A stretch of 64,000 bases of DNA from an uncultured Nitrososphaeraceae archaeon (GCA_963765895.1 CAVXZB010000084.1:352001-416000); one strand, 5' to 3'; positions 6,970-55,403 are shown, counted from the stretch's first letter. Notes: generated by a model not told the origin, from the letters alone. Numbers and translations are program-made.

Positions 6970-7330
6970 GTGAGCGCTGCTGTTGCAAATGCAATAGCAG
7001 GATTAGTTCATATTCTTATGCCCTTGATATTTGCAAATGGAATACTTCATCGCGTGCCAGGTGCCATATACTTTTTAGGCTCAGGCATAGCTCAGTTATT
7101 TTGGTTAATTCCCATGATAAGATAGTCGGGATGGCCTTGGTGTTATATCGGAATCATAGCGAACTTGGTGGTCATAATACTCGATACAGTAACAAGACTA
7201 GCTGGTAATTCTGTCACCGGCAAAGGAGGGGACATTGACGCTACTGATATGACGTACGAGCTTGCGCAGATTGTGTGTAATACTATAACAATAATAGGAA
7301 TTCATTTGTCGCAGTTCAACAACAACCGTT
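6970..7330 (+). pseudogene. Membrane protein gene with an in-frame amber stop
   Basis: Reads AIAGLVHILM...GIAQLFWLIPMIR*SGWPWCYIGII...TRL; TAG at 7123-7125; ends approximate. Confidence 0.6.
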
Positions 7331-7561
7331 CCTCCACAAACAATAATTTTTTTGTCCATTTTCTTTGTTTAAATGTTTATAGTATACGTTTTTTGATTTA
7401 ACTTAAAATGCAGCCATTGAGAGAATATGACGACGACTTATATACGGTTTATGCATGTACCAGTGTTGTTTCTGTGTCTGCAAGGCTAAAATAGCAGATA
7501 TTAAATCTATTAAAACTACTAAAACTTACAGTCGACTGAACTCATATAAATGCTATAAATG

Positions 7562-7714
7562 ATGGCCGTTCTTGAGAAATTATTAAAGATATTGGGTATT
7601 AGTTATATAACGACTAATGATAAGATGCATGAAATACAGACACAGCAAGATGAATTAACCCGTAAACTTGAAAAAATTTCTGATGACTTAAGCATGGTGT
7701 TTTGGCAGTTATAG
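7562..7714 (+). CDS. 50-aa coiled-coil-like microprotein (not in ORF track)
   Basis: MAVLEKLLKILGISYITTNDKMHEIQTQQDELTRKLEKISDDLSMVFWQL; TATA-like TATAAAT just upstream. Confidence 0.4.
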   Translation: MAVLEKLLKILGISYITTNDKMHEIQTQQDELTRKLEKISDDLSMVFWQL

Positions 7715-8039
7715 GCCCCGACCTGCCTGTGAACATTTGAATCAATCCATGGCAAGAGTTGCTACATCTCAACATTCGAAACACTTTGGACTTGAACTAA
7801 GTTGGAACAAGAATTACTCCGTTGCTTAGTTTACCATGAAATAGAATCTTGTATCACTATACTAATACCATAGATTATGCTGCATATTTAAAAGTAGAAA
7901 AGCCAGAACAATCTCCTTTCACAGTTACGAAACAAGCATGATTTTCTATGTCAAGTCTTTTGTGTTAGTATATAAAGAAATATGAGCAATTAAAGAGCTA
8001 TATATTAGAGCCGTTCTATATTGAAGTAGGTATATAAAA

Positions 8040-8141
8040 TTGATAATACAATGTCGACACTGTCATGCGCTAGCAGAAAACGAAACACTGAACTCACACT
8101 TGATTGAAAAATGTCCTTATTGCGGCGGGTTTTTTGCTTGA
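8040..8141 (+). CDS. 33-aa CPxCG-type zinc-finger microprotein (not in ORF track)
   Basis: TTG start; MIIQCRHCHALAENETLNSHLIEKCPYCGGFFA with CxxC and CPYCG. Confidence 0.6.
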   Translation: MIIQCRHCHALAENETLNSHLIEKCPYCGGFFA

Positions 8142-8968
8142 GAAACCGGCGATTAGCGGTTGATTGATTGGGGCTTTCCTAATTCAAAATTTAAAATAAT
8201 CAATAGTTATTCAGATAGGCAGGAAGTATCCCTTATTGGTAAGTGTTCAATTCAGCTATTAGCGCACGATGAAGATGGAATTGATTCCTCTATGTTCGAT
8301 CAGAGCTTTAAGTAGTGAAATGAGGATTTGATATATCATCATTATTTTTGCTTAGTTATGGTTATGTTAGTGCAAGTTCATTCTATACTACCTGATCGGA
8401 TTCCTGATGAAGGATATGGCTCATATACAGACAGAAAAAGAGAGCCGGATCTAGTCAAGGAGTCAGACAAGTAAAAAGATCTTTTTTATGTTAGATCTTG
8501 TCCGTTTTGTTTTATTGGTGATTGGTGTGACTATGATTACATAGCTTTAAGTAAGTGTCTGCATAAGCTGTGTTGAGTATTGATTGTATATCGTTTTAAC
8601 GGTGGGAAAGTTAGATACCCACGAAAAACAACTATGTTTGTAATATCAAGGATAATGAACAGTCGGGAAACATAAATTGGTGGTTTAACGAACTAGATTC
8701 ACTTGGAATTAAGAAAAACAGTAGCAATGTCAATAACGAAGACAAAAATAAAAAAAGTGAATTTGCAAATAGTCAACAGCTTGAAGATCTTACAGATGAT
8801 ATAAAGCAAAGGTTCATTCATAATTATAAGGCCAGCTATCGAGAATAATAATATTATTGGTGGTTAAGATAAAGGAATAGCTCAGGGAAAATACTAAGGT
8901 TCAGAGTGAGAAATGCAATAATTTCTTTTCTAGATTTAGACAATTAATGTAACATATGGAAGAATATC

Positions 8969-9295
8969 ATGCATATTATTAAGAGTATCAATCACGGCAA
9001 AGTCACTTTATCGTATTACAATACTATTTCTAACTCAGAGGACTATACTAAGATAACAGGGGAGGGAGAAGAACAAAATGAGATAGTATTCTCCTATAAC
9101 GATAACTAGAGAGAAATAAAAATTGGGTATTCTTCTAAATTAATGTATGAAGCTTTATCTACCCTACAAGCTGAGACAACTTTACCAACCATTCTTGCGA
9201 CGCCAACTCATTTTAGTCTAAAGAAATTAAATATAGACAACATGTCATCAGTAACTCTTTCAGCATCACATAAGTACAATAACAAGAAGGTATGA
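8969..9295 (+). pseudogene. Possible pseudogene: 108-codon frame broken by one TAG
   Basis: MHIIKSINHG...NDN*REIKIG...NKKV; TAG at 9107-9109; no recognisable family. Confidence 0.3.
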
Positions 9296-10715
9296 TCCGC
9301 TTCTACAAGCGGATACAATAATACTAATCAAAGTAAATGAGATGTCAACTTCATTTCATATTCACATAGTTTTTACTCGAACTGTGTTACATTCTTGAAT
9401 TAAAGGTCGATATTAGTGAGAGACTAATAATCCATGCTGGTATAAAATTACTCAGTGGCATGTCTGAGTTTTCATTATTTCTTAAGTGTACTAACCCTCA
9501 ATTACCAAATGGTTTAAGCCTGAAGAGATCACATGATACTAAAGAAAATACCGCCGGCCTTCCGGCTTTAGTAGCCGCAATACATATGCTTTACTACCCA
9601 TTTCATGGATTCGGCGCCAGCTTTAGTTATTTATTACCGCATATTCAACTAAATTTTTTTGAACAAAATGGGAAAGGAACTCAGGGTTATACCAATCAAT
9701 AAACAACCCATTAATCAATATTGAGCTTTTCTCTTTATCATACCGTCACAAATGTGACACTCGGTAAGGATTACAAATAATTGGTGTCAGATTTCTGACA
9801 GCAATTGTAAGGCTGGGGTTTATAATCACTAGGATACCCGAGTCTAAACAGCTTGTATCGATTTTGAATTATCAATGCACATGCACACCATATTAACAAA
9901 TGGTTTTAAGAAATCTTATTTATAAATAAAAATAATAAACCTCCCATCTATCTCGCCTCGATAAAGCCACTTTTACGACTATCTGACCGGATAACATAAC
10001 CTTCAAGGTTGTTTTGCCAGCTAGTTGTGATTGAGCGAACCCAGTCAAGCAAGAAAACAACCTGAAATATATCCGAATACTCCTAAAGGCTTCGTGTTTT
10101 CACTATTGGCATTATATTCAATAAGTAATAAATTGACTAAAGCTCTGCAATAAAAAGAGTTGACATAACTAAGAAAATATCAAATAATAAGAGTAGCCGT
10201 AGATGACTGCTTCTTAACAATAATTATTCATATACCTGTATGAATATGCCTACAAAGTTCAGTACGTATACACTAGTCTAATTAAGCTAAATAATCGTTT
10301 GGTAATGGATAATGACTTCATTGCAGCGTCTAATGACATAAGAGTAATCATGCCACTCATTCCAGATACATTTACATAGTAACAAAAGTCATTTATACTT
10401 AATAATGCTTGTTGAATGCGTGAATTTGTAGCACCAACTCTACCTAGATTCACATATTGTGAGGATTACTGGTATAATCAAAGCTAAATTAATTTAACAT
10501 ATTGAGTAAAACTGATTTGAATTATCATAGAACCATAGACAATTCATTGTCAATGTAACTCAGGGCCTTGATGCTCCTGAATAATACCAATTATTAATTG
10601 AGATAATGAAATGTTACTACATAAACGAATTTATTTGGCTAAATACAATTCTTGATTGCAATACAAAAATAAGTTGGTTAGATTTCAATAGGGACAGCAG
10701 ATATGATGAAACCAC

Positions 10716-10853
10716 TTAGTGTCCGCAGCCGCATCCACTGTGTCCATGAGAGTGACCTTGATTCTCAGCGCACGATGGGCATAGCGTACTTGCGTTTTCA
10801 GATACGAATGTAACGCCACATGAAGCGCATTTTGCTTTTTGAATTTCTTGCAT
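10716..10853 (-). CDS. 45-aa zinc-ribbon microprotein with His/Cys-rich tail (not in ORF track)
   Basis: MQEIQKAKCASCGVTFVSENASTLCPSCAENQGHSHGHSGCGCGH. Confidence 0.8.
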   Translation of the reverse strand: MQEIQKAKCASCGVTFVSENASTLCPSCAENQGHSHGHSGCGCGH

Positions 10854-11279
10854 GATCTTTGGAGTACAATACGCAAATTAAAGTCTTTTGTATTGAGCAG
10901 CTCAGAAATGGATCTCATTAATCATTTACTCTTCCAATCCGATCTTTGCCGTTCGCAAATTGAATTTGATTACTCAGGTTTGATTCTGGGGGTTATATAA
11001 TACCTATAAAAAGTGTTTCTATGACATCACAAAGATAGTTAAACATTTTATACAGATACATGGCAATTACGTCACCATATAGACAGATTTTTATTATTCT
11101 CTACTTTGCTCGCAAATTATTGGTTATCGCGATACTAACTTATGTCCTATGTTGACAATAGGGATAATAATAGTAGTACGACTTGTATGACCTAGATTAA
11201 TCCTCTAGTTTGACGTGATTAAACGGTCGTCGAGTTTTTTTGAACCTTATAACAGTTTCTTTGACCTTTATATTTACCA

Positions 11280-11755
11280 CTATGGGTATGACAGCATTAT
11301 ATGATGTAGCAGTATACGCTAAGTCTTGCAACTACTACAAATCAATATAATAGTACATTCCACTCTTGTTTTGACACATTTGTTGTTCCTGGATCAGTAA
11401 ACGGCTATGGAATTGAGCCCCATAACTCTTATAGTTTCAAACCTGGCGAAAAGATTTCCCCCTGTGTGGAACCTGTAGGCTTTTCATATAAACTAATAAA
11501 ATCACTTAATTTGATGAGTTTTACTGCTGATCTTTTAGTTTCAGATAAGACTGGTCATATACTTACAGGGTTTTCAAAATCTGCCAATCTACAATAATCT
11601 CTCATCACAAAAATAAGGACTCAATTTTGACTGTAAGCATGACTCAGACAAGTCTATTTCAGGTTGGAGATTATGTATTGAAATACATCATACATGATGC
11701 TGTGTCTGGAAACAATTTTAGTATAGTAAAGAATATCAAAATAGCTAACATTTGA
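11280..11755 (+). pseudogene. Decayed secreted-protein gene
   Basis: Fragments FDTFVVPGSVNGYG...FKPGEKI..VEPVGFSY and IISHHKNK...GDYVLKYIIHD...IVKNIKI separated by frameshifts. Confidence 0.55.
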
Positions 11756-11937
11756 AGGGATTTGATAGTATGTTTAGAATAGGTTTTAAAGTGTGTTACA
11801 TCATTGATGTTGAGTTTCTGAATAAATAGATATACAGGGCGCGCAATCTGAAATCAAATATGTGACACAAAGATATAAGCAGCCTTGGTGCAATTGTATG
11901 GTGGTCACACTTTTTACTAGAATAAGGCGGAATGTAC

Positions 11938-13659
11938 TTAATTAAATATCAAGCGCTCGGATTGTAAACTGTCTCTCGCCTGTTCAAGCTTATTCTTAGT
12001 AACACTATTTGCTATGCTATTCAACCTGGAGATCATAATGTCTATAGATCTAATTACAGAATATTTTAGTTCATCAGGATCGATGAACTGACCTCGTGTT
12101 GCTTTAATCAGGGGGGAAAATTCGGCCGAACTACCGATCTTGTGAAATAAGTCCAATTGCTTAGCGACTTCGAGATGAAGAGATTGGACTAGTCCTTTGA
12201 CTTTCTCACCCGTATGTACTAATTGCTGTTCAGAGTTTCGCATTTTTTTAATCGAGGAATTAGTTGCACAATTGAACCCGTCTTCAGCCGCATGCGAGAG
12301 GGTTTGAATTGCTTGTTTGAACTGTTGTAAGTTATCTTGCATTATGCCAGTCATTATGTCGATCCGTTTTCTGTGTTGGTCATTTTTCCTATCTAGGGCC
12401 TCTGTTTCAGATTTTAATGTCTGTACCTTCGAATATATTGAATTGTACGCAGATTTGATATTGGCGTATTGTGCTAGGTCGTTGCTGATTGCAGAGATAT
12501 CTAATTTGCTTTCCTTGTATATTTGTGTACATTGTACTATGTTTTCTTGTGTAACTCCATATTCCATCAGTTCAGTGAGGGTATCTAGAACATTCTTTTT
12601 CTTGGCATACTCTAATGAAATATGGCGAAGCTCTTGTTGGTATTTTTGCAACTGCTCATTCATATTGGCTATTCTTCCTTCGAAGCCTAATTTCTTATCA
12701 TATTGTCCTTCTATGTCTCTGATAAGCTTCTTAAATGCAAAATACGGTCCAAGGTTATTATGACACGCCGAAATCTCATAAACGGTATTCCTTAACAAAC
12801 CAAGCTCCTTTAATCCAATACCGTTTCTTTCAAGTTCGCCATATAGTCCAAAACTCATTCTATGAGAGTCCAATTTTTCCTCACATTTGGCGCATTCTTC
12901 TGTATCTTTCCTCAATTTTTCTTCTTTTTTAGTAATGGAAATTTGTAATTTGTCCTCTCTTATCTGCAATGACTCAATTGAAGAAAGCTTCTCTGTGATC
13001 GTTATGGGTTCATATCCGTTATATTGTAACTCATGAAGCACTTTAACAAGCTTGGGAACTTTCGACTCTTCAAAAGATAGTCCAAACTTACTTAGGAGCA
13101 TCTTTAGCTGTATAAAGTTGTCAATAGCACTACTAGTCATCTTGCTCCTTTCTAATGCTTCGTCTCTTTCTTCTTGGGCATTTGTTTTCTCTTCTCTTAA
13201 TCTTTTCAGTTCGTTTTCTAGCCTCTCTACCTCTACACTTAGCTTCTTAATGTGGTCCGGGAGTTGTAAAATCGAACGTGATCCTCGTATAGAGATTATC
13301 TGTTGAGACGTCTCCACAATTTCATGAGGTGCTATGTTACATTCCCGACACTGCCGGTATACCTTGTTTACAAATGATTCTAAACTTTCATCGTCTAATC
13401 CTAGTTTTGCTATTAGATTGAATAATCTATAACCCGATGCACATTCAGAAGTATTGATGCCTGACCTACGTAACTCTGTTGCAAACTGTCTGAGAGTATC
13501 AGCATCTGGTGTCCCGATGTTATTTTTCCACTCTAAAATTATTGCACTGACGGTACCAGTGCCTATTTGTATATCGCCAGCGATCTTATCCCTTTGATCG
13601 CCCTGAAGCCATCGATGCACAACATCATCCTTTATATTTTCAGAGATCTGTTCCCTCAT
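11938..13659 (-). CDS. N-terminal HTH plus long coiled-coil protein
   Basis: WLQGDQRDKIAGDIQIGTGTVSAII HTH; several heptad-rich segments over 573 aa. Confidence 0.8.
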   Translation of the reverse strand: MREQISENIKDDVVHRWLQGDQRDKIAGDIQIGTGTVSAIILEWKNNIGTPDADTLRQFATELRRSGINTSECASGYRLFNLIAKLGLDDESLESFVNKVYRQCRECNIAPHEIVETSQQIISIRGSRSILQLPDHIKKLSVEVERLENELKRLREEKTNAQEERDEALERSKMTSSAIDNFIQLKMLLSKFGLSFEESKVPKLVKVLHELQYNGYEPITITEKLSSIESLQIREDKLQISITKKEEKLRKDTEECAKCEEKLDSHRMSFGLYGELERNGIGLKELGLLRNTVYEISACHNNLGPYFAFKKLIRDIEGQYDKKLGFEGRIANMNEQLQKYQQELRHISLEYAKKKNVLDTLTELMEYGVTQENIVQCTQIYKESKLDISAISNDLAQYANIKSAYNSIYSKVQTLKSETEALDRKNDQHRKRIDIMTGIMQDNLQQFKQAIQTLSHAAEDGFNCATNSSIKKMRNSEQQLVHTGEKVKGLVQSLHLEVAKQLDLFHKIGSSAEFSPLIKATRGQFIDPDELKYSVIRSIDIMISRLNSIANSVTKNKLEQARDSLQSERLIFN

Positions 13660-13761: not shown

Positions 13762-14388
13762 CAGAATCTTTGTTGATCACAAGCACGATAGTAGCAGTAT
13801 AGAAAACAGCTACGGATTTATCATCAACTATCAATATTAGGCCTTGATGCGCTCTGAAACAAGTTGTATTTAACGATATAGTTCAATTTGTGATGTCCTG
13901 AGCCTCGCTATGGTTGGTCCTATCAGATGACAATCTATTTCATGATACCCGTAATTAACTATAAACTTCTATTCATTAACATAATTTCGTCTAGTCAATC
14001 AACTCATCTTCTATCTGTTTACTGCCTTGTCGTTACACATAATTATATTAAGCAGTATTTCACTAATAGACATAGCACAGTCTCCGTAAGAAGGAACATT
14101 TAACAGCGCCTTCAGATGGGAACATACTAAATATAATAGAGGCACATGGGGGATCAATCTCGGGCAAGAATAATATAGATAAAAAAAAGAATCTACCTTT
14201 TACTTTAGGCTTCCGTTACAACGAAAACCAATTGAAGAGATTGAACCAAATACTACTACAAACCAAGATACTATATCCTAAAAGGTAATAACTTCTGCTA
14301 GATTAAGGATAAATTGAAAATCCCGAAGTAATAGCTACGTATATCGTCTACTGGCTGGCATAGCTCGGATAGTATTGAGGTTCTTCAT

Positions 14389-15336
14389 GGCTATGTAGAA
14401 AACATCATCAATATTACAAGATTAGTCAGTCTATGCATATTGTAGGTGATACATCTAAATGATAACTCTCTGTTCTGCATTCTAGTCAATCTAGACATAA
14501 GATGCTCTCCAAATAGTCGTTTTATGACTGATATTATGGTTTCATCTTTGTTTCGTTGATTGTACAGCAATTTGGAGTAACCACGCTTCATCTGCTTTCT
14601 GTACTTACCATGTGTTCTCCACATCGGTACATGTTCATATCGAGCAGGAATAATACTGAATGCATGTAAGTCCTCTCTTACGAGAAGGTGATTATCTTCA
14701 CTATCGTAACCCTTATCAGCTGTAACTACAGATAATGGAAGAATATTTGATGTCCTTGTTATAATTGGCCTGAAATCTACATTATCATGCCTTGTTGGAG
14801 CTCGTCTTATCTTAATTGTACATATGATTTGTTGTAATACATCTACTCCAATAGATAATTTCGCATATTTTCTTCTCAATTCTGTTCGATCAGTATAATA
14901 TTGTGATGCATGAGTTATCTTAAATCCTGTTGAATCTATTCCTGCAAAGATATGCTTGGTACCACTAATTACAATGAATGACGAAATTATCTTTTCAAGC
15001 AATGAATTATTGATTCTATCTGTAAACTTTTGCAATGTTGTAAAATGAGGAATACGTGACAACCGTAGAAATGACCTTAGGTAATAGGCTTCAATTAACC
15101 ACTCGACAAACATTCTATAACTCTTACCTTCATACTGTCGTATAGCAACTAGAACTATGTGCTGCCATATTGTAAATATGTGATTACTTTTCCTGTTAGA
15201 AAATAGAGGAATCCTTGCATGCTTCAAAACACGGAACATAGTACCTGCAAGTCTGACGTACATTGATTCTTTCAATAGACTATTGGTATTATACTCTTAC
15301 AAAGCTTTGACTGTATGAGATGGTTTCTACACAGCC
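14389..15336 (-). mobile_element. IS5-family (IS903-like) insertion sequence, 948 bp
   Basis: TIRs GGCTATGTAGAAAACATC (14389-14406) and GATGGTTTCTACACAGCC (15319-15336), 16/18 match; 9-bp TSD GTTCTTCAT at 14380-14388 and 15337-15345. Confidence 0.92.
14391..15275 (-). CDS. IS5-family DDE transposase
   Basis: IDSTG, ADKGYD and YNQRNKDETIISVIKR DDE motifs; stop codon lies within the TIR. Confidence 0.92.
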   Translation of the reverse strand: MKESMYVRLAGTMFRVLKHARIPLFSNRKSNHIFTIWQHIVLVAIRQYEGKSYRMFVEWLIEAYYLRSFLRLSRIPHFTTLQKFTDRINNSLLEKIISSFIVISGTKHIFAGIDSTGFKITHASQYYTDRTELRRKYAKLSIGVDVLQQIICTIKIRRAPTRHDNVDFRPIITRTSNILPLSVVTADKGYDSEDNHLLVREDLHAFSIIPARYEHVPMWRTHGKYRKQMKRGYSKLLYNQRNKDETIISVIKRLFGEHLMSRLTRMQNRELSFRCITYNMHRLTNLVILMMFST

Positions 15337-15613
15337 GTTCTTCATATAAGTCTCTTCCTTGTGCTACTTAAGTCTTGGTTAATACCTTCCAAGAAGTATC
15401 GAGTTTCCAACACAGTTATCGAGCTCATTGCCATACCCAGCCCGGTGAGCATGATAAGCCATTCAAATACTTCAACACCAGTAAATGGTACTAATACTGA
15501 TATTCTCTGCAATTTGGACGAGGGCAAGTATTATAAAAAGTGTATAGTGATAAAAATAAATAGGACTTTTCCAGTATAGGTTATGTTATGCATTATCTAC
15601 GCTATGTTCTGCC

Positions 15614-15921
15614 TTAGCCTACGCCGCCTAAATTCTCAACGGTGTTTGTAGAGTTATCGTTGCAGGATGCACTAATGGCAGAAGATGCACCAGCAGTTTT
15701 CACAATCTCCATGTTGAGTAGTCTGGGTTGGTAGCGAAATACCTGAGCCAGTTGATGTGCCTGGGTCACCGCCTCCGTTGCCGCCGGCAATAGTAAGTGT
15801 TTGAATATTTTGTGCTGGAGCAGGCTATGTTACTAATGCTGCGACAGTGCCTGTTACTACCAATATAGGCACCAGCTGCTATTATGAGTAATTTATAAGA
15901 CGTTGTGCAGTTTATTATCAT
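15614..15921 (-). pseudogene. Secreted C-x12-C repeat family member with a nonsense codon and two frameshifts
   Basis: Reconstructs to ...TVAALVT*PAPAQNIQ...SGISLPTQTTQHGDCETAGASSAISASCNDNSTNTVENLGGVG, homologous to 50338..50748. Confidence 0.8.
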
Positions 15922-16031
15922 TTAATTGAACTATATATACTAGCACTATATTTCTGGGTTCGAAACAATTACTAAGCTGTATTTAGCTATGATAATAGAC
16001 TCTTATCTTATTCCTGTTAGTAAATAATATT
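15922..16031 (-). promoter_or_regulatory. Conserved upstream element of the C-x12-C family, diverged copy
   Basis: Minus strand TATTATTTAC-TAACAGGAATAAGATAAGAGTCTATTATCATAGCTAAATACAGCTTA...AGAAATAT. Confidence 0.7.
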
Positions 16032-16418
16032 GTGATATGCTAGAATTGAGTATACGTCTAAATACTAAAGCCTTGGGATTTCTCTTAGCTATACCCTTTG
16101 AACCTCAAAAATCAAATCACGTAATAAAGTAATATTATATTAACCAGAATTCAATATTAGAATTAAGGTTCTGACGACAGTTGTTTCAAATTTACATAGA
16201 GTCCTCATTTTACCAATATTGTATAAATATACAAATATTTAAGTGAATATTATACTATTGATTTTCTGATGTAAGAGTCAACCTCTATAAAATAGTGGCA
16301 TTACAATTTAGTGTTCTCTTTATTATAATTGCGATACCAATTGCAACCTATCAGGTAAGCTAGATACCAATTATGTCATAAAATTGTGAAGATTAGTTTG
16401 TACTTGTTATAGATGGTA

Positions 16419-17009
16419 TTAGGATTCCATTGCGTGAGCTTTCTTCCTTCTGATATAGACCGTGCCTGCTACCCCAGATATAATCGAGACGACAATAAGC
16501 ACGATTACTACTGATACTGAACTAAATGGTTCTGAAGGAGTAAAAAATGACATAAATGGGCTGACGACTGTTATTGGAAAGGTAAAAGTAATGTTTTGGT
16601 TATTATATGATGTATCATATACGTCAACATCTAGTGAGTATATCCCACTCTGATTAAATGTGTATGGAAATGTGAAATGGCCATATGTTACTGATATAGG
16701 ATTTGTTCTTGTTAATTCGGAGCCTCCTTTTGATATTCTGATCACAATTGGAATATCGACCAATTCATCTCCTTCGACGCTCCCAATCCTTAATTGAATT
16801 TTGGAATTTGTATTTACAACTGGATTTTGTGGAAGGGTTTTCATCTCCATATCGTAATTACCTATCCTCTGACGAATTGCGCCTTTAATAGTATCTGCAA
16901 AGACAACCCTTTGTTCCACAAGTGTCATACTTACTAAAAGTAGAAAAAGTAATAAAGACGTCATTGAGGCATACAGGCCAAGTAAATGATTGGGATTCCT
17001 ATAATACAT
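16419..17009 (-). CDS. Secreted Ig-like protein with C-terminal membrane anchor
   Basis: Signal peptide, YTFNQSGIYSLDVDV beta pattern, C-terminal TM plus RRKK. Confidence 0.75.
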   Translation of the reverse strand: MYYRNPNHLLGLYASMTSLLLFLLLVSMTLVEQRVVFADTIKGAIRQRIGNYDMEMKTLPQNPVVNTNSKIQLRIGSVEGDELVDIPIVIRISKGGSELTRTNPISVTYGHFTFPYTFNQSGIYSLDVDVYDTSYNNQNITFTFPITVVSPFMSFFTPSEPFSSVSVVIVLIVVSIISGVAGTVYIRRKKAHAMES

Positions 17010-17045: not shown

Positions 17046-17625
17046 TCACATTTGATCCATAATACCGATGTAGTTATCCACAATCTTGTCTAAAAAGGCA
17101 TCCTTGTATATCACCAATATCTTCTTGACCTCCCTGCTATCAACAATTGTATAATGCTGGGAGCGATCTCCAAGTGACACAGAGATAATTCCTGCGTCCC
17201 GTAACCTATTGAGATGCCAAGATATCGTTGAAGGTGCCTTTCCGCTGTTTTCAACGATTTCGCCAAACTGTACAATGATCGTGTTCTAGTATGAATAGTA
17301 TGAGCTGCCTTGATACCTTGTTTTTCATCTGACCTATCAGATAGGTATCTTCATCAGGAACGCCTGTAAGATAATATCGTGTTATTTTATTTTTTCTTCT
17401 ATCCGCTCTTATTTTTCCTATTCTTTCAAGTATAGAAAGATGATAAGTTAATACACCATTGCCGAGATGAAAAATTCGCAGTAACTCTCTATATCTGACT
17501 CCTGGATTTCGGTCAATACATGCTAGAAGTGATACATCGATGTCATTCCGGAATTCTTGTATAGTATGAGCACCTTGTTCGAGAATATGTATTGATCCGT
17601 TGGAGGGGTCAGATACCAAATTCAT
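17046..17625 (-). CDS. Double winged-helix transcriptional regulator (frameshift near 17270)
   Basis: NPGVRYRELLR...GVLTYHLSILE; continues in another frame as GEIVENSGKAPSTISWHLNRLRDAGII...DNYIGIMDQM. Confidence 0.75.
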
Positions 17626-18039
17626 AATTTCTTATTACTCACCCTAAATACTCCAATTCCAAACAATGTTAACATAGCGAAAAGAATTACATGAGGGCAG
17701 CTCAATCCGCACAACAGGTATAATAATATCCTCAATATTTACTGTTGCGAATAAAAGATAAAGACATTCGATTACCACGAGAGACAAAAAGCCTAATGCC
17801 ATAAATAAGAGCCTGCTGGAACTATTCCTCTTGTAGGCAAGGATGGCCACGATACCCAGGAAAATAGATATGATAAGACTTACCAAGTGAAGTAGAATAT
17901 GGTAGATCATGTAGACATGACCTAGATGTGGCAATATAACCGGGACTGCCAATGCTCCCACTACGACAATTGATATAAGTGCTAGTAGTTTGGGCTTGCT
18001 TTCAATAAAATTAAACGTAGTAGCCCTACTAGATTGCAT
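17622..18039 (-). CDS. His-containing multi-pass membrane protein coupled to the regulator (frameshift near 17695)
   Basis: PHLGHVYMIYHILLH motif; corrected C-terminus ELPHVILFAMLTLFGIGVF ends in an ATGA overlap with the 17625 start. Confidence 0.7.
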
Positions 18040-45123: not shown

Positions 45124-45971
45124 TTGACTTCATCTATAGAGATCAAGAATCTAAAAAGAAAGGATGGTGACAATAAGAAAATAGATCTCAAGGGAGGCAC
45201 AGTCCTAGATGGACTCCCAAGCAGGTACTGGTCTAGTTAATGCTATTGCATCAGAATGTTTAATACGTTCAACAGGAACAGATCTTGTAGCATTTCTGGA
45301 CTCGCCAGATTTTCCACCATTATCTGTCATAACCAATTATATTCCTCAGTATCCCATACGAATTTATGTCAACGAAAATCTGAAAGTCGCATTCTTTGTC
45401 TCCGATATTAACATAGACAAGCTGCTATATAGAGAGGTAGCTAATGCAATTCTTACGTGGACAAGAGAAAATGAATGTAAATTAATCATTAGTGCGCAGG
45501 GTATTCAATCATCGTCTTATCCTCCCTCTCAGGATGATAATGGGAGAAATGATAATCCACATAATAATGGAGCTGCTAGTAAAAGCAATCAGAATGACCC
45601 ATCTGAATCAGCTACGCTTTCTCACTCCCATATCGATAGTTATGCAGTAACAAGTACCGGAATCTGCAACTCGATTAATTACCGGACATAGTAACTATTT
45701 TTCACATTTACGTAGCGGAACTATTACCGGTATTCCAGCAATCTTGTTAAATGAAGGCGCTTTGACAAATCTTGATGTAATCGTATTTTTGGTTAACGCA
45801 TTACCAGATATTCCGGACTTTCGAGCGGCTGCTATAGTTTCAGAATTTGTGAGCAAGATAATTCCAAACCTCTCCTGTGATATTGAAGCCTTGATGGTCG
45901 AGGCACAACTAATTGAAAATAGAATGAAGAATCTAAGAGATGAACACAAAAAAACATCATACATTGCATGA
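45124..45971 (+). CDS. PAC2-family proteasome assembly chaperone-like protein (two frameshifts)
   Basis: IDLKGGTVLDGLPS/TGLVNAIAS, LDSPDFPP, GTITGIPAILLNEG, PDFRAAA. Confidence 0.75.
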
Positions 45972-47067: not shown

Positions 47068-47246
47068 GATTTTAGTATCTGGCTACTAGCTTATGTAAAT
47101 TTGGAAGAATACTTCAATGATCCTAATAGATAATTTAGATGGTCATAGCATTAATTCAACAAATAATTTGATCATTAGCAATAAGGTAGTACAGAATAAT
47201 AATCAAGATCTAGTATATTGACGTACTTCCACTATAAATACCACGA

Positions 47247-47363
47247 TATTATTTGCTATAACAGGATTATGATAAGAATCTGATATCATAGCTGTATAGA
47301 AATATAGCTTATCAATGGTTTCAAACGTAGAAATATCTGTATTATTGTATAGAGTTCAGTAAC
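47247..47363 (+). promoter_or_regulatory. Conserved upstream element of the C-x12-C family
   Basis: TATTATTTGCTATAACAGGATTATGATAAGAATCTGATATCATAGCT identical to the 50220 and 52018 copies. Confidence 0.8.
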
Positions 47364-47616
47364 ATGACAAATGGCATAATAAATAAATCTCTATTTTCAT
47401 GTGCCGTCCTTGCCGCTATACTGGTAGCAACAGGCATAATCTCAGCTCAAATAGCTCAATCTGCTGGCAGCGGAAAATACCTCGTCAACGATCAAGAGTA
47501 CTCAGGCTCATATCTGTCATTATAAATCTAAGAATTCTCCAATACTTCACTCTTGTAACGATGTCGTTAGGGGATCTGTTTCACATCCAGGTGAGTCAAA
47601 TGAAAGCACTAAGTAG
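47364..47616 (+). pseudogene. Frameshifted secreted C-x12-C family member (not in ORF track)
   Basis: MTNGIINKSLFSCAVLAAILVATGIISAQIAQS / AAENTSSTIKSTQAHICHYKSKNSPILHSCNDVVRG...; one extra base near 47465. Confidence 0.7.
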
Positions 47617-48206
47617 GAAGAAACCGCATTAAAATCGTAAAACATAACCAGAATCCTTCATTTTTTAGTCCCATGTATGTATGTTTTAGCAATTGTTATC
47701 TTGATTATAACTTATCATAGTCTGACGGACGTTTATCATTATTTTGTTGAAAAAATAAAGGGTATTGGTAGGGATATTTAGCTGTCTTGTGACTTAGGAT
47801 AAGATACGGAAGTCATATTTGGTAACAGCGTAGCGATGAATAAAAAATATACCATAGTGCTAAGTAACTAAGAACTAAGCATTTAAACAATCGTATAATT
47901 TCAATAAGCCCATTTTATTGACTCTTAAAACATTCATAGGTAACTATTCAGCTATATACAGTTACCTGGCTCTTCCAGTTTTTGAAATCAAATTAAGCCA
48001 TGTTTATTATTTGACCGTGATTTATTAAGTGTGTTTGTTATAATAATTTAGATGGATTATAGTTTTAATAAATTCATAAAGAGTAACGCTTCCTAGTTAA
48101 GGCAAGGTAAATTCAAGTCATTTCCAAAATCAAACTGGGGCGCGTACCTGTTCCATCTTTATTTATCAGGCTCGTAGTCAATTTAATATTTAGGCAGGAG
48201 ATTAGA

Positions 48207-49505
48207 TTAAGAAAAAGTAGGCAGGGGAATTCTGTCAGTACCGCCAGTATTGAAAGGCACTGTTCTGCCGCTATTCGAATGGACTGTATTGGCCGTATTG
48301 GCTGTATTGGTAGGGACTGTTCTGCCGCTATTCGAATGGACTGTACCGCCAGTATTGATGTTCATAATTGTCCCCCCATTTACGCATGAACCTGTTATGG
48401 GTGAGTTACCTCCTACCGTCATACATACAGGGGCTTGTCTAATATTTGGTCCACTGGCCCTATTGCCAGAACCGCTGGGACCATTGCCCGTCCCTATATT
48501 ACCACCTGAATTAGTGTTGTTACTAATAGCAGAATTCGTGCATGAACCTGTTATGGGTGAGTTACCTCCTACGGATATACATTCGACAGGGTCTTGTCTA
48601 ATATTTGGTCCACTGGCCCTATTGCCAGAACCGCTGGGACCATTACCCGTCCCTATATTACCACCTGAATTAGTGTTGTTACTAGTTGCAGCATTATTAC
48701 ACGAATCTGTGATCGGCGAGTTACCTCCTACTGATATACAGCTTGGATCTTGAATAATATCTGGGTCACCGCCGCCTGTACCGCCGCCACCATTATCTCC
48801 GCCGCCTGTACCGCCGCCACCATTATCTCCGCCGCCTGTACCGCCGCCACCATTATCTCCGCCGCCTGTACCGCCGCCACCATGTATCTCCGCCGCCTGT
48901 CACCGCCGCCTGTACCGCCACTGTCACCACCTATCTCCGCCCACCTGTCACCGCCACCACCCGTCTATCTCCGCCGCCTGTACCGCCGCCACCATTATCT
49001 CCGCCGCCTGTACCGCCGCCACCATTATCTCCGCCGCCTGTACCGCCGCCACCATTATCTCCGCCCTGCCCTGTACCCGCCGCCACCATTATCTCCGCCG
49101 CCTGTACCGCCGCCACCGTCTATCGCCGACCGCCTGTACCGCCGCCACCATTATCTCCGCCGCCTGTACCGCCGCCACCATTATCTCCGCCGCCTGTACC
49201 GCCGCCACCATTATCTCCGCCGCCGTATCTGCCGCCGCCACCATTATCTCCGCCGCCTGTCACCGCCCTGCCACCATTATCTCCGCCGCCTGTCACCGCC
49301 ATGTCCCGCCATTATCTCCGCCACCTGTATCTCCGCCGCCATCACAGTTGTACTCACAATTGTTATTTGCTATATGTAACAATTGTTCCAATCTCAATGG
49401 AGAAATATATGCAAAGCTTTGTTGTGAAGGTAATAGTCCAATATTTACTAATCCGCTAGCCACTAAAATCGATACTAAACTTAGTATAAGTATAGGGTTT
49501 TTCAT
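48207..49505 (-). CDS. Large secreted protein: signal peptide, GDNGGGGTGG array, three C-x12-C repeats (frame broken inside the array)
   Basis: MKNPILILS...SFA; CISVGGNSPITDSC, CISVGGNSPITGSC, CMTVGGNSPITGSC about 49 aa apart. Confidence 0.8.
48768..49340. repeat. GC-rich 30-bp tandem array, roughly 19 partly degenerate units
   Basis: Unit CCGCCGCCTGTACCGCCGCCACCATTATCT encodes GDNGGGGTGG on the minus strand. Confidence 0.92.
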
Positions 49506-50219
49506 AACTGATAAAATACTTAGTATCTGTTATTTCTTGATTTGGAAGATTAAGTCTACCTTTTAGGGCTATCTGAGAAATCTAGTTCATACTACAGGAA
49601 AATTAAACTGAATTAGCTACTAAACAATTAGGTTTTAATAATATACCCTATGATCTCATAGGATCCTTTTCTTAAATTTTATTTTGTATAAACCACGTTA
49701 TTGGCTATATAAAGTTGGTAAATATCATACATTTCAGTTTCCTCTCTAGATTATACTTTATTGGATAAAAAGTAAAAATAGAAGTCAACAAATTTGTAGA
49801 TACACTGTGCTTCTACCTACATGATCTTTTACAAAGAAATACTTACAAATCTTCTAAATTTGTTAAAGGTGAGTGATAATACCACTTGATATTCGTAGGC
49901 ATATGAATTCACAAAGATAAAGTATCATCATCTTTGTTCTGCAAGTAAGAAAGACATAATTAAGATTTATAATATTTTAGAGATAATACATAATGACCGA
50001 ATACATAATGATCGCCAATTTTGTTCTCATCGGAAAACTAAATGCAAATTGCAATATGTAGAGAGCCAGCTGAATCTATTCGTTTATGATCAAAACTAGA
50101 CGAATATCTTAGAAATTGGTGCGCCGTATCTGGTATAAAAGTACTGATTAAAACGTATACAAACATACAATCTCTCAAACTCAGCATCTACACGTAGAAT
50201 CCATACTAATATATCGCTA

Positions 50220-50337
50220 TATTATTTGCTATAACAGGATTATGATAAGAATCTGATATCATAGCTAAATACAAATACAGCTTACCAATGGTTTCAAACA
50301 CAGAAATATTTTGTGTTAATCTATATAGCTCGATAAA
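50220..50337 (+). promoter_or_regulatory. Conserved upstream element with TATGATA-N9-TATCATA inverted repeat
   Basis: Arms at 50241-50247 and 50257-50263. Confidence 0.8.
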
Positions 50338-50748
50338 ATGACAAATCGCACAACATCTAGTAAAATGCTCTCAATAGTAGCCGTTGCTGCTATGCTAGTA
50401 GCAACAACAACTATTGCAGCTTTAGTAACACAACCTGTGGCAGCACAAAGTATTTCAATACCGACCAACAATACCCAAGCATCAGCTTGTGATACCGCTG
50501 GTCTATCATCTGCAATAAGTGACTCCTGCAATAACTTGTTTAACAACAATGTTACTAATTCAGGCGGAGTACTTAACCTAGGACCTGGAACAGGAGGCGC
50601 AAGTATTTCAATACCAACTAGCAATGCTCAACAATCAGACTGTGAAACTGCTGGTGCATCTTCTGGTATCTCTGCATCCTGCAACAATAACGCTACAAAC
50701 ACTGTTGTAAACTCTGGCGGCATCAAAGTTAGACCATGTGGCTGTTGA
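50338..50748 (+). CDS. Secreted Ser/Asn/Thr-rich protein with two C-x12-C repeats and a C-terminal CGC
   Basis: Signal ending VAA; two SISIPT...C..AG..S.IS.SCNN...NSGG units. Confidence 0.85.
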   Translation: MTNRTTSSKMLSIVAVAAMLVATTTIAALVTQPVAAQSISIPTNNTQASACDTAGLSSAISDSCNNLFNNNVTNSGGVLNLGPGTGGASISIPTSNAQQSDCETAGASSGISASCNNNATNTVVNSGGIKVRPCGC

Positions 50749-50797
50749 GTGATCCTAAGCATAAGTAGAGACAAGAATAGTGTAAAAAGCGTAGAAC

Positions 50798-50836
50798 ATA
50801 ACCTGCAAAGGTTCTTTCCTTTTTTATTTTTATTTT
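50798..50836 (+). terminator. GCAA-tetraloop hairpin plus T tract
   Basis: AACCT-GCAA-AGGTT-CTTTCCTTTTTT; repeated at about 52597-52626. Confidence 0.55.
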
Positions 50837-51959
50837 AAGTTAGATAATTAACTGCTATGTTATGGCGGTAATTTTTAGATTATTGTCTCATATTTATTAA
50901 TTGGCTAATCTATCTGTTCATTGAAGAAATAGGAAAACTCAGTAACATAAGATCTATAACTTCTATTGCCAGTCAAATTCTTACAAGTGGTGAATTTGAC
51001 TTGCTTAGCTCTAAAGTGCTGTCCTAGCTTTGTTGTAGATGCATTAAATGAATGACTGACAAGATGTTAGTTATACCGAAGTTGCTTTTGGATATATTTA
51101 GTATTCTTATAGTATCTTGAATTCTAGAAAGGCAGTTGGAAATGTTCCGAAATTATATACTCTTACGTATTTCAAAGTAAGAGAAAGAAGATAATGCATA
51201 ACGGCGGTGAACAGTTTGACTACATACATAATATTCAGACATTTACTAATACACACTCGAATAAAGAAAATAGCAAATACCAAATTGTTATCCGTAGTTA
51301 CATAGCAGAGTCGAAGAAGTACATAACAATAATGTAAAAATTTGTTCCTAGCAGTTGAAAATATGCCAAACACAAATAATGGTAAACACAGGTATGATGA
51401 CATGTTGTTAAAGCCTAGAACTAGACTAGAGGACATGGAGGGATTAATGGTCTTACTCCCTCAGAGAGGTTTCTACAAGAACAATTACACCTGGTACACA
51501 TACGAGAACCAAGAGCAGCATATAATCCCAATAGGTAATTCATGTAGGTAAATAGAAATGTAACCTATCTATGTAAGTACAACTGCTAGTAAGTATATTC
51601 TTATTGTTATAGATAAGGCTAGAAAATCATTTTATTATATTATCTTACCTCCTATATTAGTATAAAAGAGTACATATAGCTGATAACTTGGAACAATTTA
51701 ATCTGATCCTGATGCAGAAATAGATCCCGGAACATGTTGTCGAAGTGAAAGGGCTACTGTACATCTGGATACACAACAGTAGTATTAAATACAATAATCA
51801 ATTATTTACTCATCTGGTAGTAAAGACTGCTATCACACTTGGTGAGAAATACGACTACTCTAACCGCAATTATCTCAGGATTTGCGATACATTAATTTGG
51901 AAATATCAAATCTATGTCATACGTATAGTTGAGTAATTTAATTGATAGTTGGAGAGATT

Positions 51960-52626
51960 AACATACAATCTCTCAAACTCAGCATCTACACGTAGAATCC
52001 ATACTAATATATCGCTATATTATTTGCTATAACAGGATTATGATAAGAATCTGATATCATAGCTAAATACAAATACAGCTTACCAATGGTTTCAAACACA
52101 GAAATATTTTGTGTTAATCTATATAGCTCGATAAAATGACAAATCGCACAACATCTAGTAAAATGCTCTCAATAGTAGCCGTTGCTGCCTATGCTAGTAG
52201 CAACAACAACTATTGCAGCTTTAGTAACACAACCTGTGGCAGCACAAAGTATTTCAATACCGACCAGCAATAACCAATCACAAGCTTGTGATACCGCTGG
52301 TCTATCATCTGCAATAAGTGACTCCTGCAATGGATCGTTTAACAACAATGTTACTAATTCAGGTGGAGTACTTAACCTAGGTAATGGAACAGGAGGCGCA
52401 AGTATTTCAATACCAACTAGCACTGCTCAACAAACAGACTGTGAAACTGCTGGTGCACACTCTGGTATCTCTGCATCCTGCAACAATAACGCTACAAACA
52501 CTGTTGTAAACTCTGGCGGCATCAAAGTTAGACCATGTGGCTGTTAAGTGATCCTAAGCATAAGTAGAGACAAGATAGTGTAAAAGGCGTAGAATATAAC
52601 CTGCAAAGGTTCTTTCCTTTTTTTAT
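51960..52626 (+). repeat. About 670-bp duplication, copy 2
   Basis: Near-identical to 50162-50827. Confidence 0.92.
52136..52547 (+). CDS. Paralog of 50338..50748 with a +1 frameshift in the signal peptide
   Basis: GCTGCCTATG vs GCTGCTATG at about 52188; remainder intact with a few substitutions. Confidence 0.8.
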
Positions 52627-53207: not shown

Positions 53208-55403
53208 ATGGCAAAAGATCCTGTCTGTGGCATGTTTGTCGAAGAAAAGCACGATACAATTGCAAGTATAAAGGACGGGAGGAAATATTACTTTTGTAGT
53301 TCTCAATGTCTGAATGAATTTACTCAGCCAGAAAAGGAATTAAAAAAGCTCAAAAATTATGTTACTATAAGCATTGGACTTACAATACCCATCGTAATTC
53401 TAAGCTTGCCTCATATGTTCCCTTCCCATTTTGAGACCTTGATCCCCATGAATGTAATGCAGTATACAAATTTTATCATGTTAGCATTAGCTACTCCTTT
53501 GCAGTTCTGGATAGGCTGGCGATTTTACAGGGGTTTATGGGAGGGGATCAGGGCAAGAGCATCCAATATGGATACACTTATTGCTGTCGGGACAACGACT
53601 GCCTATGTTTATAGTGCCATCGTAACAATCGTTCCTAGTTATCTTCCTTTCAAATCTGTATACTTTGAAACTGCCGCAATTATCATTACTTTAATATTGA
53701 TTGGAAGGTTGCTTGAAACACGAACCAAGGAAAGAGCCTCCAATGCTGTACGAAAATTGTTGGACATTCAGCCAAAAATGGCCAAGATTCTTAGGAACGG
53801 AACTGAGATTGACTTGCCTATCGAACAAGTCAAGGAAAATGATCTCATGCTAATAAAGCCTGGAGAAAGAATCCCTGCAGATGGGGTTGTGGAAGACGGT
53901 TTCTCATCCATAGATGAATCAGCTATAACTGGCGAAAGCATCCCAATAGATAAGCAAAAAGGTGATCAAGTTATAGGAGCAACAATTAACAAGAATGGTC
54001 TACTCAAAGTCAGAGCCACAAAAGTTGGGCAAGATACTGTACTTTCTCAGATTATTGCATTAGTAGAAGAAGCTAGAACTGGAAAGGCACACATGCAAAG
54101 GTTAGTAGATCAAGTTGCTAAATATTTTGTCCCGGGAGTAATGATTATAGCATTGTGTGTAGGTTTTGGATGGTATTACTTAGGTGGGATAGGCCTAACA
54201 TATTCCATCTTGGCGTTTGTTTCTGTAATAATAATTGCATGTCCTTGCGCATTAGGAATTGCAACGCCTGCGGCCCTAATGATGGGTTCTGGAAAAGGAG
54301 CTGAAAATGGTATTTTGTTTAAGGGTGGAGAGTATTTGGAAATGGCAAGAAAGGTAAAGACAGTTGTATTTGATAAGACTGGAACTTTGACAAAAGGTAA
54401 GCCGTCTGTAACTGATATAGTAGATTTAACGAATGGTGCATTAGGTGAAGCAGAGTTACTCAGACTAGCGGCCATTGTAGAATCAGGCTCAGAGCATCCT
54501 CTAAGTCAGGCAGTCATAATTAAAGCAAAGGATGAAGGATTAGCTATTTTATCAAGTCCAGATTTCTTTGAAGCAGTATCTGGTCGTGGACTTAGAGCAA
54601 GATATGCCGATCACACAATTCTCATTGGGAATAGGAAATTAATGGAGGAAAACAAATTATCAATTACCTCGGCCATAGAAACAAAACTGAAAGAGTTTGA
54701 AAGCGAAGGGAAAACAGCTACGATTATTGCGATCGACTATAACCTTTCGGGGATAATTGTGTTTGCAGATACGATAAAAGATGAAGCTGGCGAGGCAATT
54801 GACTCTCTTAAACTGATGGGAATGGACGTAGTAATGCTTACTGGAGACAACGAAAGAACTGCGAAAGCAGTCGCATACCAACTTGGTATCAGTAAGGTGT
54901 TTTCTCAAGTATTACCACAACAAAAAGAACAAGTAATTTCTAATCTGAAGAAAAATGGGAATGTGGTTGCAATGGTAGGAGATGGGATAAACGATGCACC
55001 TGCATTAGCTCAAGCTGACTTAGGAATTGCAATAGGTTCAGGAACAGATGTTGCGAAAGAGACTGGAGGGATCATATTGATAAAAGGTGATCTGAGGGAT
55101 GTTGTAACGGCTCTAGATCTAGGAAGAAAAACAGTGTCAAAGATAAAACAGAATTTATTCTGGGCATTTGCGTATAACGCCGGGCTCATCCCAATCGCTG
55201 GCGGAATCTTGGTGCCCTTTGCTGGTGTTGGAATATTCGGATGGCTTCCCATGTTAGCGGGCTTGGCGATGGCAATGAGCTCAGTAACAGTCGTTGGAAA
55301 CTCAATACTACTAGGAAGATATAAGCCAGGATCTAAAAAAGAACGCAGGGAAGAAGATTATAGAAAAAACCTGAAAACCATACCGAACATTGCCAGCAAG
55401 TAG
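53208..55403 (+). CDS. copA: Cu(I)-translocating P1B-type ATPase with N-terminal YHS/TRASH domain
   Basis: DPVCGM...YFCS..C, TGES, CPC, DKTGT, SEHP, GDGIND, YN and MAMSS. Confidence 0.95.
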   Translation: MAKDPVCGMFVEEKHDTIASIKDGRKYYFCSSQCLNEFTQPEKELKKLKNYVTISIGLTIPIVILSLPHMFPSHFETLIPMNVMQYTNFIMLALATPLQFWIGWRFYRGLWEGIRARASNMDTLIAVGTTTAYVYSAIVTIVPSYLPFKSVYFETAAIIITLILIGRLLETRTKERASNAVRKLLDIQPKMAKILRNGTEIDLPIEQVKENDLMLIKPGERIPADGVVEDGFSSIDESAITGESIPIDKQKGDQVIGATINKNGLLKVRATKVGQDTVLSQIIALVEEARTGKAHMQRLVDQVAKYFVPGVMIIALCVGFGWYYLGGIGLTYSILAFVSVIIIACPCALGIATPAALMMGSGKGAENGILFKGGEYLEMARKVKTVVFDKTGTLTKGKPSVTDIVDLTNGALGEAELLRLAAIVESGSEHPLSQAVIIKAKDEGLAILSSPDFFEAVSGRGLRARYADHTILIGNRKLMEENKLSITSAIETKLKEFESEGKTATIIAIDYNLSGIIVFADTIKDEAGEAIDSLKLMGMDVVMLTGDNERTAKAVAYQLGISKVFSQVLPQQKEQVISNLKKNGNVVAMVGDGINDAPALAQADLGIAIGSGTDVAKETGGIILIKGDLRDVVTALDLGRKTVSKIKQNLFWAFAYNAGLIPIAGGILVPFAGVGIFGWLPMLAGLAMAMSSVTVVGNSILLGRYKPGSKKERREEDYRKNLKTIPNIASK

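Follow-up and report, generated by a model that had tools for sequence, protein, structure and literature searches.

Nitrososphaeraceae archaea are major soil nitrifiers, for which little is understood about envelope construction, aggregation, and attachment. Here, we ask what is made by a group of small secreted-protein genes in a 64,000-nucleotide (nt) stretch of DNA from an uncultured member of this family (GCA_963765895.1, CAVXZB010000084.1:352001-416000; the window), which is part of contig C84 of a genome of 4.9 Mb, 88 contigs, and 36.8% GC. The placement in this family agrees with the source names of close protein hits. Five loci in the window, named here by their lowest coordinate (15614, 47364, 48207, 50338, and 52136), encode proteins with an N-terminal signal peptide and a pair of cysteines separated by 12 residues (C-x12-C). 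A preliminary description, made from the sequence alone, had likened these proteins to the subunit sets of functional amyloids such as curli and chaplins. The reading we favor, with a rough probability of 45%, is that these proteins are building blocks of an extracellular fiber or surface matrix of this soil ammonia-oxidizing archaeon, one that assembles itself and is stapled by disulfides.

A 41-residue unit with two cysteines recurs at five loci

All five loci are present, and the motifs quoted in the preliminary description can be read straight from the sequence. Its counts are also correct: the motif occurs once at 15614, once at 47364, three times at 48207, and twice each at 50338 and 52136. 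The motif lies at the center of a longer unit of 41 residues, ISxPT-x3-Q-x3-C-x12-C-N..N-S/T-GG, for which an alignment of homologues gave the consensus (G/S)-I-S-x-P-T-x3-Q-x3-C-x-T-(A/V)-G-G-x-S-P-I-(S/T)-x-S-C-x-N-x7..N-(S/T)-G-G-(V/I), in which the two cysteines and a number of Asn, Gln, Ser, and Gly positions are invariant or nearly so. We built a hidden Markov model (HMM) of the unit from homologues and ran it on all 75,973 six-frame open reading frames (ORFs) of the genome. It matched the window loci and four to five further loci on contigs C48, C51, C68, and C85, and nothing else. Domain E-values lay mostly between 3e-22 and 1e-8 (3e-22 and 1.2e-20 for the two units at 50338); weaker domains (0.026-0.19) were the first half of the 15614 unit, the second and third units of the long gene at 48207, and the 47364 unit (0.19). 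Judged by these scores, the C-x12-C motif is beyond chance.

The product of the 50338 gene serves as the reference for the family. Its residues 1-36 read as a Sec type I signal peptide, with a long hydrophobic region that ends in ...QPVAA directly before a Gln. Unit 1 (residues 38-78, nt 50449-50571) and unit 2 (residues 89-129, nt 50602-50724) carry the motifs CDTAGLSSAISDSC and CETAGASSGISASC and are joined by a GPGTGGA linker, and the protein ends in KVRPCGC. As the preliminary description had stated, two members, this protein and its duplicate at 52136, end in CGC; most homologues lack this tail and end in KVRS or KVTP. The near charge-free, S/N/T/G-rich character of the family is borne out by the mature 50338 product, in which 6 of 100 residues are charged: it contains 17% S, 15% N, 12% G, 10% A, and 9% T (S+N+G+T, 53%), and 27% of its residues are I, V, L, A, or F. 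A polar, near-uncharged composition of this kind is found in beta-solenoids with Asn/Gln ladders. Homologues of the 50338 product are 66-95% identical to it, and C51/C64 and C102/C115 are invariant in all 12 close homologues; in a 30-row alignment C102 and C115 are invariant and C51 nearly so.

Across the family, one to four units per protein follow Sec-type signal peptides, and the linkers are rich in G/S/D/N/H, with His-rich linkers in several homologues (P0061, P0062, P0106, and P0073). Metagenomic members carry between one and four near-identical units, and many have a KLPFGGFP end. The unit is also fused to other domains. The additional loci on C48, C51, C68, and C85 encode a hydrophobic N-terminus, one unit (CDTVGADSPVSDSC), and then a domain of ~100 residues. 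In relatives, a single unit is followed by one to five domains of prealbumin type (L026; SpaA_2 at 40 bits, cutoff 25) or itself follows an NHL beta-propeller (L017; NHL, 1.8e-30). The SpaA_2 domain is absent from the five window loci; among paralogues it is above the cutoff in L026 and below it, at 22.7 bits, in P0050. In L016 and P0068 the unit lies beside a second cysteine module, QANICGN..C..NAVNVIGAQ. This second secreted module (Q-A-N-x-C-G-N-x..C-Q..N-A-V-N-V-I-G-x-Q, C-x10-C), perhaps a sister family of the first, stands by itself in some proteins and is joined to the C-x12-C unit in others (C19:163551-163784 in the window's genome, G000; L016:3073-3708(-); P0068), and an acidic three-repeat version of it is the main form in genomes of genus g2 (L034).

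That no named family fits, as first proposed, holds. Searches of Pfam, NCBIfam, and PDB sequences with the window proteins and up to 14 homologues returned no family; for Pfam, hmmscan was run against 24,736 Pfam-A models with reporting limits of E <= 1 for the window proteins and E <= 0.1 for the 14 homologues, and its filters drop most matches above ~0.1. Matches to the Pfam families Dppa2_A, RECK-like_N, and MccV were sub-threshold noise. One source labels P0032 as archaeal type IV pilin/FlaG-FlaF; we set this label aside, the window protein having no Pfam or NCBIfam match. The ESM Atlas gave only unnamed Nitrososphaerota clusters at 0.87-0.88, values too low for more than a lead, and we found no description of the C-x12-C family in the literature on Nitrososphaera, Nitrosocosmicus, and ammonia-oxidizing archaea.

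Four copies of the two-unit protein are modeled as an in-register stack

Monomer and oligomer predictions, which the preliminary description had put forward as a check, gave split results. Modeled as single chains in AlphaFold2, the two-unit protein (30-row alignment) reached a predicted local distance difference test score (pLDDT) of 44.9 and a predicted template modeling score of 0.21, and the three-unit part of the long protein (17 rows) reached a pLDDT of 43.6. The latter model has, at low confidence, three like strands in each unit (residues 12-15, 18-22, and 33-43; 64-67, 71-75, and 86-96; 117-119, 123-127, and 138-148), with the two cysteines flanking the arc between strands 2 and 3. 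The oligomer scored above its controls: four copies of the mature protein (residues 37-136, alignment A4) gave interface scores (ipSAE, from predicted aligned errors) of 0.75, 0.73, and 0.72 (median 0.73), the best of three controls scoring 0.00. Partner pLDDT was at least 82, and contacts agreed across runs to at least 94%. In calibration, 20 of 30 proteins whose solved structure is a pair of the same chain reached the ipSAE mark, as did 1 of 23 whose solved structure is a single chain; the comparison is only rough here because the present model used its own alignment and four copies instead of two.

The modeled interface pairs residues 87-133 of one copy with residues 37-83 of its neighbor, always 51 residues (one unit) apart (contacts 125:74, 92:41, 90:39, 123:72, 115:64, and 111:60), so that like residues meet: N125 on N74, I92 on I41, and C115 on C64. 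Taken at face value, this geometry would be a head-to-tail polymer of rungs, as a fiber subunit would need. The low confidence of the single chains fits folding on assembly.

The family is found in Nitrososphaeraceae only, under purifying selection, and transcribed

As the preliminary description had suggested, archaeal genomes and Pfam were searched for the family, with matches in Nitrososphaeraceae and no Pfam family. Homologues of the two-unit protein fell into 43 clusters at E <= 0.01, and a profile of it run against 1.84 billion representatives returned 74 clusters at E <= 1e-3. Ten of the 41 nearest genomes had a match, including all seven of the window's genus (six relatives and G000), in which a genome can hold as many as 19 matches; the 16 genomes from other families of the order had none. 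With a broader profile, 51 of 151 Nitrososphaeraceae genomes in 9 of 18 genera matched (a tally that takes in one unpublished genome, G054), and none of 250 genomes from other families of the phylum did at E <= 1e-5. In genus g2, whose closed genomes have 34-35% GC, the one locus inspected in G052 (L034) encodes a divergent acidic C-x10-C variant that matches the unit model weakly, and a true family member is present in G081. We tentatively take g2 to be Nitrosocosmicus.

Among four orthologues of the two-unit gene, dN/dS was 0.28-0.44 in all six pairs (0.32-0.44 for the 50338 gene against the other three); by this measure the gene is under purifying selection. The genes are also expressed, one of the points on which the original proposal could have failed: contigs of RNA libraries from two studies, X15 (labeled plant metagenome) and X16 (labeled soil metagenome), lie on the coding parts of the two-unit genes and of the small gene, and in the long gene on the half that bears the units. 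On 50328-50695 the X16 contigs had a word depth of 6,984-12,008, compared with 5-20 in two DNA runs on the same bins. Because expression is poorly measured by contig depth, and because the runs were found with this very stretch, we take these data to show that the family genes are transcribed, probably strongly, and no more. We did not count as evidence the intergenic parts that are covered in DNA runs and uncovered in RNA (50696-52167 and others). Depth in the DNA runs spikes to 20 and 125 at 51432-51615, compared with ~5-15 elsewhere, and several contigs end at 51425-51478, which suggests a small repeated or mobile element between the two-unit copies.

Four of the genes share an upstream element, and four are broken in frame in this assembly

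Coordinates of the genes and their associated elements are collected in Table 1. The three units of the long gene (CISVGGNSPITDSC and two more) lie within 48210-48760, inside a 230-aa open frame (48210-48899). The Gly-rich spacer that had been ascribed to this member is encoded by ~14 copies of a 30-nt repeat and is hypervariable among orthologues (L006, L019, and L027). In the 52136 copy, an open 121-aa frame with the CGC end runs from 52182 on. The two copies of the two-unit gene are 100% identical over 229 nt, from upstream into the signal-peptide region, and the differences between them form short clusters before, between, and after the cysteine loops (for example, NNTQASA/SNNQSQA, NNL/NGS, GPG/GNG, and ASS/AHS); this pattern could reflect 5' gene conversion or diversification of exposed positions.

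Table 1. Genes of the C-x12-C family and associated elements (window coordinates)
Feature	Position	Strand	Details
Two-unit gene	50338..50748	+	136 aa; sole intact ORF of the five
Second two-unit gene	52136..52547	+	Tandem duplicate 1798 nt downstream; 98% DNA identity to 50338 copy
Small one-unit gene	47364..47616	+	Divergent; unit CHYKSKNSPILHSC; signal peptide 47364-47465
Long gene	48207..49505	-	N-terminal hydrophobic signal/anchor (from 49505), Gly/Asp/Asn-rich spacer, three units, ...RIPLPTFS tail
Tandem 30-nt repeats	48765..49342	.	Period 30, 13.8 copies, 9% indels; code (GGGDNGGGGT)n
Degenerate one-unit copy	15614..15921	-	Unit halves ..ISLPTQTTQHGDCE and TAGASSAISASCNDNSTNTVENLGGV in separate frames
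Upstream element	50187..50337	+	nhmmer E 4.2e-39
Upstream element	51985..52135	+	100% identical to 50187 copy; nhmmer E 4.2e-39
Upstream element	47215..47363	+	90% over 99 nt to copies at 50211 and 52009; nhmmer E 6.2e-36
Upstream element	15922..16061	-	Ahead of degenerate copy; nhmmer E 1.8e-27

A stretch of ~150 nt directly upstream of the ATG is common to the four genes whose products start with MTN, namely both two-unit copies, the small gene, and the 15614 copy. It holds a perfect inverted repeat, TATGATA-N9-TATCATA, and a block GGTTTCAAAC..CAGAAATAT; it is also found ahead of family genes in three other genomes, with 76% mean column identity over 11 upstream regions from 4 genomes, and is better conserved between paralogues than the mature coding parts. 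The pattern points to a common promoter and operator, the inverted repeat being the likely operator for a regulator. We considered whether the element marks a wider regulon and rejected this, as nhmmer finds it in the genome at the four MTN-type genes only.

The ORF track lacks the members at 15614 and 47364, as the preliminary description had noted, because both are frame-broken. The frame of the 47364 gene changes at 47466, and the L019 orthologue aligns to it in two frames (47364-47465 and 47467-47613). In the 52136 copy, DNA alignment shows one surplus C at ~52188 that shifts the frame within the signal peptide, and no public-run contig row resolves it. The long gene has at least five frame changes, every one inside the 30-nt repeats; contig cover of the repeat part at 48856-49039 is nil in all four public runs. 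Most of these breaks are probably indel errors of the assembly and not gene decay, because (i) unrelated conserved neighbors are broken in the same way; (ii) the orthologues of the small and long genes in relatives are uninterrupted, the former as intact 82-87-codon open frames in three relatives (L006, L019, and L027), the latter as a single intact 249-aa ORF in G001 (L019), with the copies in G002 and G004 cut by contig ends and open as far as they are present; and (iii) the base at 47466 is absent in five of five covering contigs from the four public runs. Among the neighbors, the PAC2 gene (45124-45968) aligns to its orthologue in three frames, and a helix-turn-helix (HTH) regulator (17049-17625) and a small membrane protein (17628-18039) align in two frames each. 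These cases suggest that single-base indel errors are frequent in the assembly, and such errors may account in part for the genome's completeness of 88%. Short, repetitive, and easily frame-broken genes of this kind lead annotation pipelines to miss the C-x12-C family.

In the 15614 copy, the frame changes along the gene, a stop codon interrupts the signal peptide in frame, and the N-terminus is in another frame than the unit halves. This locus looks truly decayed: besides the stop codon, there is an insertion sequence (IS) in the vicinity, and remnants of CopA and histidine-kinase genes surround it. Related intact genes (signal peptide, Gly-rich spacer, and one unit) are present in matching neighborhoods of relatives L018 and L020. 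The adjoining patch at 14133-15527 is rearranged: it holds the IS transposase (DDE_Tnp_1, 14391-15275), the C-terminal remnant of CopA (15342-15527(-)), and ~45 residues of a histidine-kinase C-terminus (14133-14266), the kinase being full length (833 aa) at the orthologous locus L018. On the other side, at 16419-17009(-), lies a gene for a 196-aa exported protein with a C-terminal membrane segment; its order with the HTH regulator and the small membrane protein (17049-18039(-)) is kept next to the one-unit gene in L018 and L020, and the three could form a sensor/regulator set for that gene. The HTH regulator, encoded two genes upstream of the one-unit gene, is a candidate to act on the TATGATA-N9-TATCATA repeat. 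Just upstream of the window (C84:350421-350753 and 351637-351969 of G000) are two identical 118-codon open frames, stop to stop, for another duplicated small secreted protein, which is exported, Gly/Asp/Asn/Ala-rich, and ends in ..CNNEC...

A proposed fiber or matrix and its alternatives

In our proposal, the Sec pathway would export each protein, and every 41-residue unit would fold into a rung of three short beta-strands; a disulfide between its two invariant cysteines, which are spaced by 12 residues, would staple the arc that connects strands 2 and 3. In-register stacking of the rungs would bring Asn onto Asn, Ile onto Ile, and Cys onto Cys, inside each chain and also, head to tail, from one chain to the next. 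The two-unit protein from 50338 and its duplicate at 52136 may be the bulk subunit, and the long protein, with three units, a flexible Gly-rich tether, and an N-terminal hydrophobic segment, may be a cell-proximal base or nucleator. In relatives, the proteins that combine a unit with prealbumin-like (SpaA-type) or NHL-propeller domains would serve to insert functional domains into the polymer. While the stacking comes from a model, we infer export, the disulfide, the polymer, and the roles of individual paralogues; amyloid character and the division into major and minor subunits are likewise suggestions.

The fiber or matrix proposal as first made is partly supported, for the fiber itself by modeling only: genes that are real and covered by RNA-library contigs, a paralogous set with one to three units, the lack of a named family, and the stacking model speak for it, whereas the search for curli or chaplin homology and for assembly genes came back empty. 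Several further points weigh against a fiber or matrix. Fiber, disulfide, and export rest on sequence and models. Both single-chain AlphaFold2 models fall below a pLDDT of 50, and the sole positive structural result is one model job, of a kind that may stack repeat chains that do not bind. Pfam, NCBIfam, and PDB sequences hold no sequence relationship to known fiber families. By the ORF map and a Pfam scan of the neighbors, no nucleator, chaperone, or secretion genes adjoin the cluster, which is flanked by genes for a creatininase, a PAC2 protein, a CopA-type ATPase, an SDR, a MOSC protein, and a cupredoxin. No protein with more than four units was found, and a search for longer relatives (239-2000 aa) of the two-unit protein was empty. 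Finally, four of the five window loci, all except 50338, are broken in frame in this assembly.

A possible, if doubtful, alternative is that the unit is a disulfide-stapled surface module that does not polymerize and serves in anchoring or adhesion to the envelope, glycans, or soil surfaces, the small proteins being an abundant envelope coat or parts of glycoproteins. The fusions to cell-surface domains (SpaA_2 prealbumin-like repeats and the NHL propeller) fit this alternative, as do three N-x-S/T sequons in the mature two-unit protein and the conserved tail of the three- to four-unit forms (KLPFGGFP or IPLPTFS), a possible attachment signal. The lack of assembly genes nearby and of a stable fold in the single-chain models would also be explained, although a binding module would be expected to fold alone. 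Against it stands the four-copy model, which has a specific unit-on-unit interface in register while all three controls scored 0.00, and searches of Pfam and NCBIfam gave no ligand-binding family match. The same in-register self-stacking argues against secreted antimicrobial peptides (archaeocin- or microcin-like) that diversify through paralogues, a highly improbable function for these genes. The products are indeed small, exported, Gly/Ser/Asn-rich, near-uncharged, and cysteine-bearing, and have many diverging paralogues per genome, but the one microcin match (Microcin V, PF17508; E 0.054) scores 14.5 bits, far under the cutoff of 27. Moreover, immunity or export genes were not found nearby, the unit is also fused to large surface domains, and its core is under purifying selection.

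The neighboring CopA-type gene raises the question of whether the proteins bind or buffer extracellular copper, or another metal, through their cysteine pairs, CGC tail, and His-rich linkers. A P-type ATPase with a YHS domain (53208-55403) begins 660 nt downstream of the 52136 copy, the 15614 copy has a CopA remnant beside it, several homologues have His-rich linkers, and ammonia-oxidizing archaea depend on copper (PMC12448741). The adjacency, however, recurs only in one relative (L004), which as a near-identical genome (G003) is not independent support, and is missing at the orthologues in two others (L002 and L011). The CGC tail is not conserved, being absent in most homologues, no His or Met is conserved in the loop that the cysteines enclose, Pfam and NCBIfam gave no metal-binding family match, and an extracellular C-x12-C pair would more likely be oxidized. 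We therefore rejected copper as the leading explanation and regard it as quite improbable. The remaining probability belongs to functions that we have not thought of.

If the fiber or matrix holds, a further step can be imagined: the family would be a building block of the outer layer in soil ammonia-oxidizing archaea that lack or supplement a surface layer (S-layer), namely the thick wall and hair-like cover known from Nitrosocosmicus and its relatives, as a polar functional amyloid in the form of a beta-solenoid with one disulfide per rung, into which adhesin and propeller proteins are woven. This extended picture is unlikely as it stands. If true, Nitrososphaerota would gain their first polymer of this type, with no relationship to curli, chaplins, Fap, or methanogen sheaths.

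Comparison with known systems

In curli of Enterobacteria (CsgA/CsgB), each repeat is a rung and the rungs are stacked in register. The C-x12-C proteins are like them in predicted Sec export, in a polar composition rich in Ser/Asn/Gln/Gly, in short imperfect repeats, and in having paralogues of differing repeat number, as for major and minor subunits; their own in-register stacking is a modeled one. They differ in that the window proteins and 14 homologues have no curlin-repeat match in Pfam, that genes of the csgB and csgE/F/G type were not found adjoining the cluster, and that the archaeal host has no outer membrane. Curli repeats are also shorter and have no cysteine, in contrast to a unit of ~41 aa with two invariant cysteines.

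Chaplins of Streptomyces (ChpA-H) are closer in this last respect. The chaplin domain has ~40 residues and two conserved cysteines that are thought to form an intramolecular disulfide, and the C-x12-C unit has 41 aa and two conserved cysteines. Chaplins come in short forms with one domain and long anchored forms with more domains, a division paralleled by the one-, two-, and three-unit members here. Chaplin domains are, however, strongly hydrophobic, whereas the C-x12-C unit is polar (17% S, 15% N, and 12% G), has no Pfam match, and occurs in proteins that have no sortase-type anchor.

Among archaea, the sheath proteins of methanogens (MspA of Methanothrix, and those of Methanospirillum) are reported to be extracellular structural functional amyloids (PMC6242892 and PMC11576556). 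These differ from the present family in size (MspA has 60.9 kDa), in their arrangement in rings, and in their host, as the C-x12-C family was found in Nitrososphaeraceae only. Searches of homologues, profiles, and PDB sequences gave no match to a sheath protein or another known family.

Another setting is offered by Nitrosocosmicus, which has no canonical S-layer genes and is enclosed by a wall ~18 nm thick and a hair-like cover of ~30 nm of unknown composition (PMC11559005); it forms aggregates and biofilm (aggregation first) with no known adhesin homologues (PMC12448741). Secreted, polymerizing proteins of the same archaeal family would be candidates for a part of this layer, although the low-GC closed g2 genomes carry mostly the divergent acidic C-x10-C variant. 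An unannotated secreted family with as many as ~20 paralogues per genome, for which head-to-tail stacking is modeled, offers a testable candidate for the wall or cover material of Nitrosocosmicus. If the proposal is true, it adds a sequence-unrelated, cysteine-stapled design to the few known microbial repeat proteins that form fibers. Set beside these systems, the family is a new, lineage-restricted take on the theme of secreted self-assembling repeat proteins.

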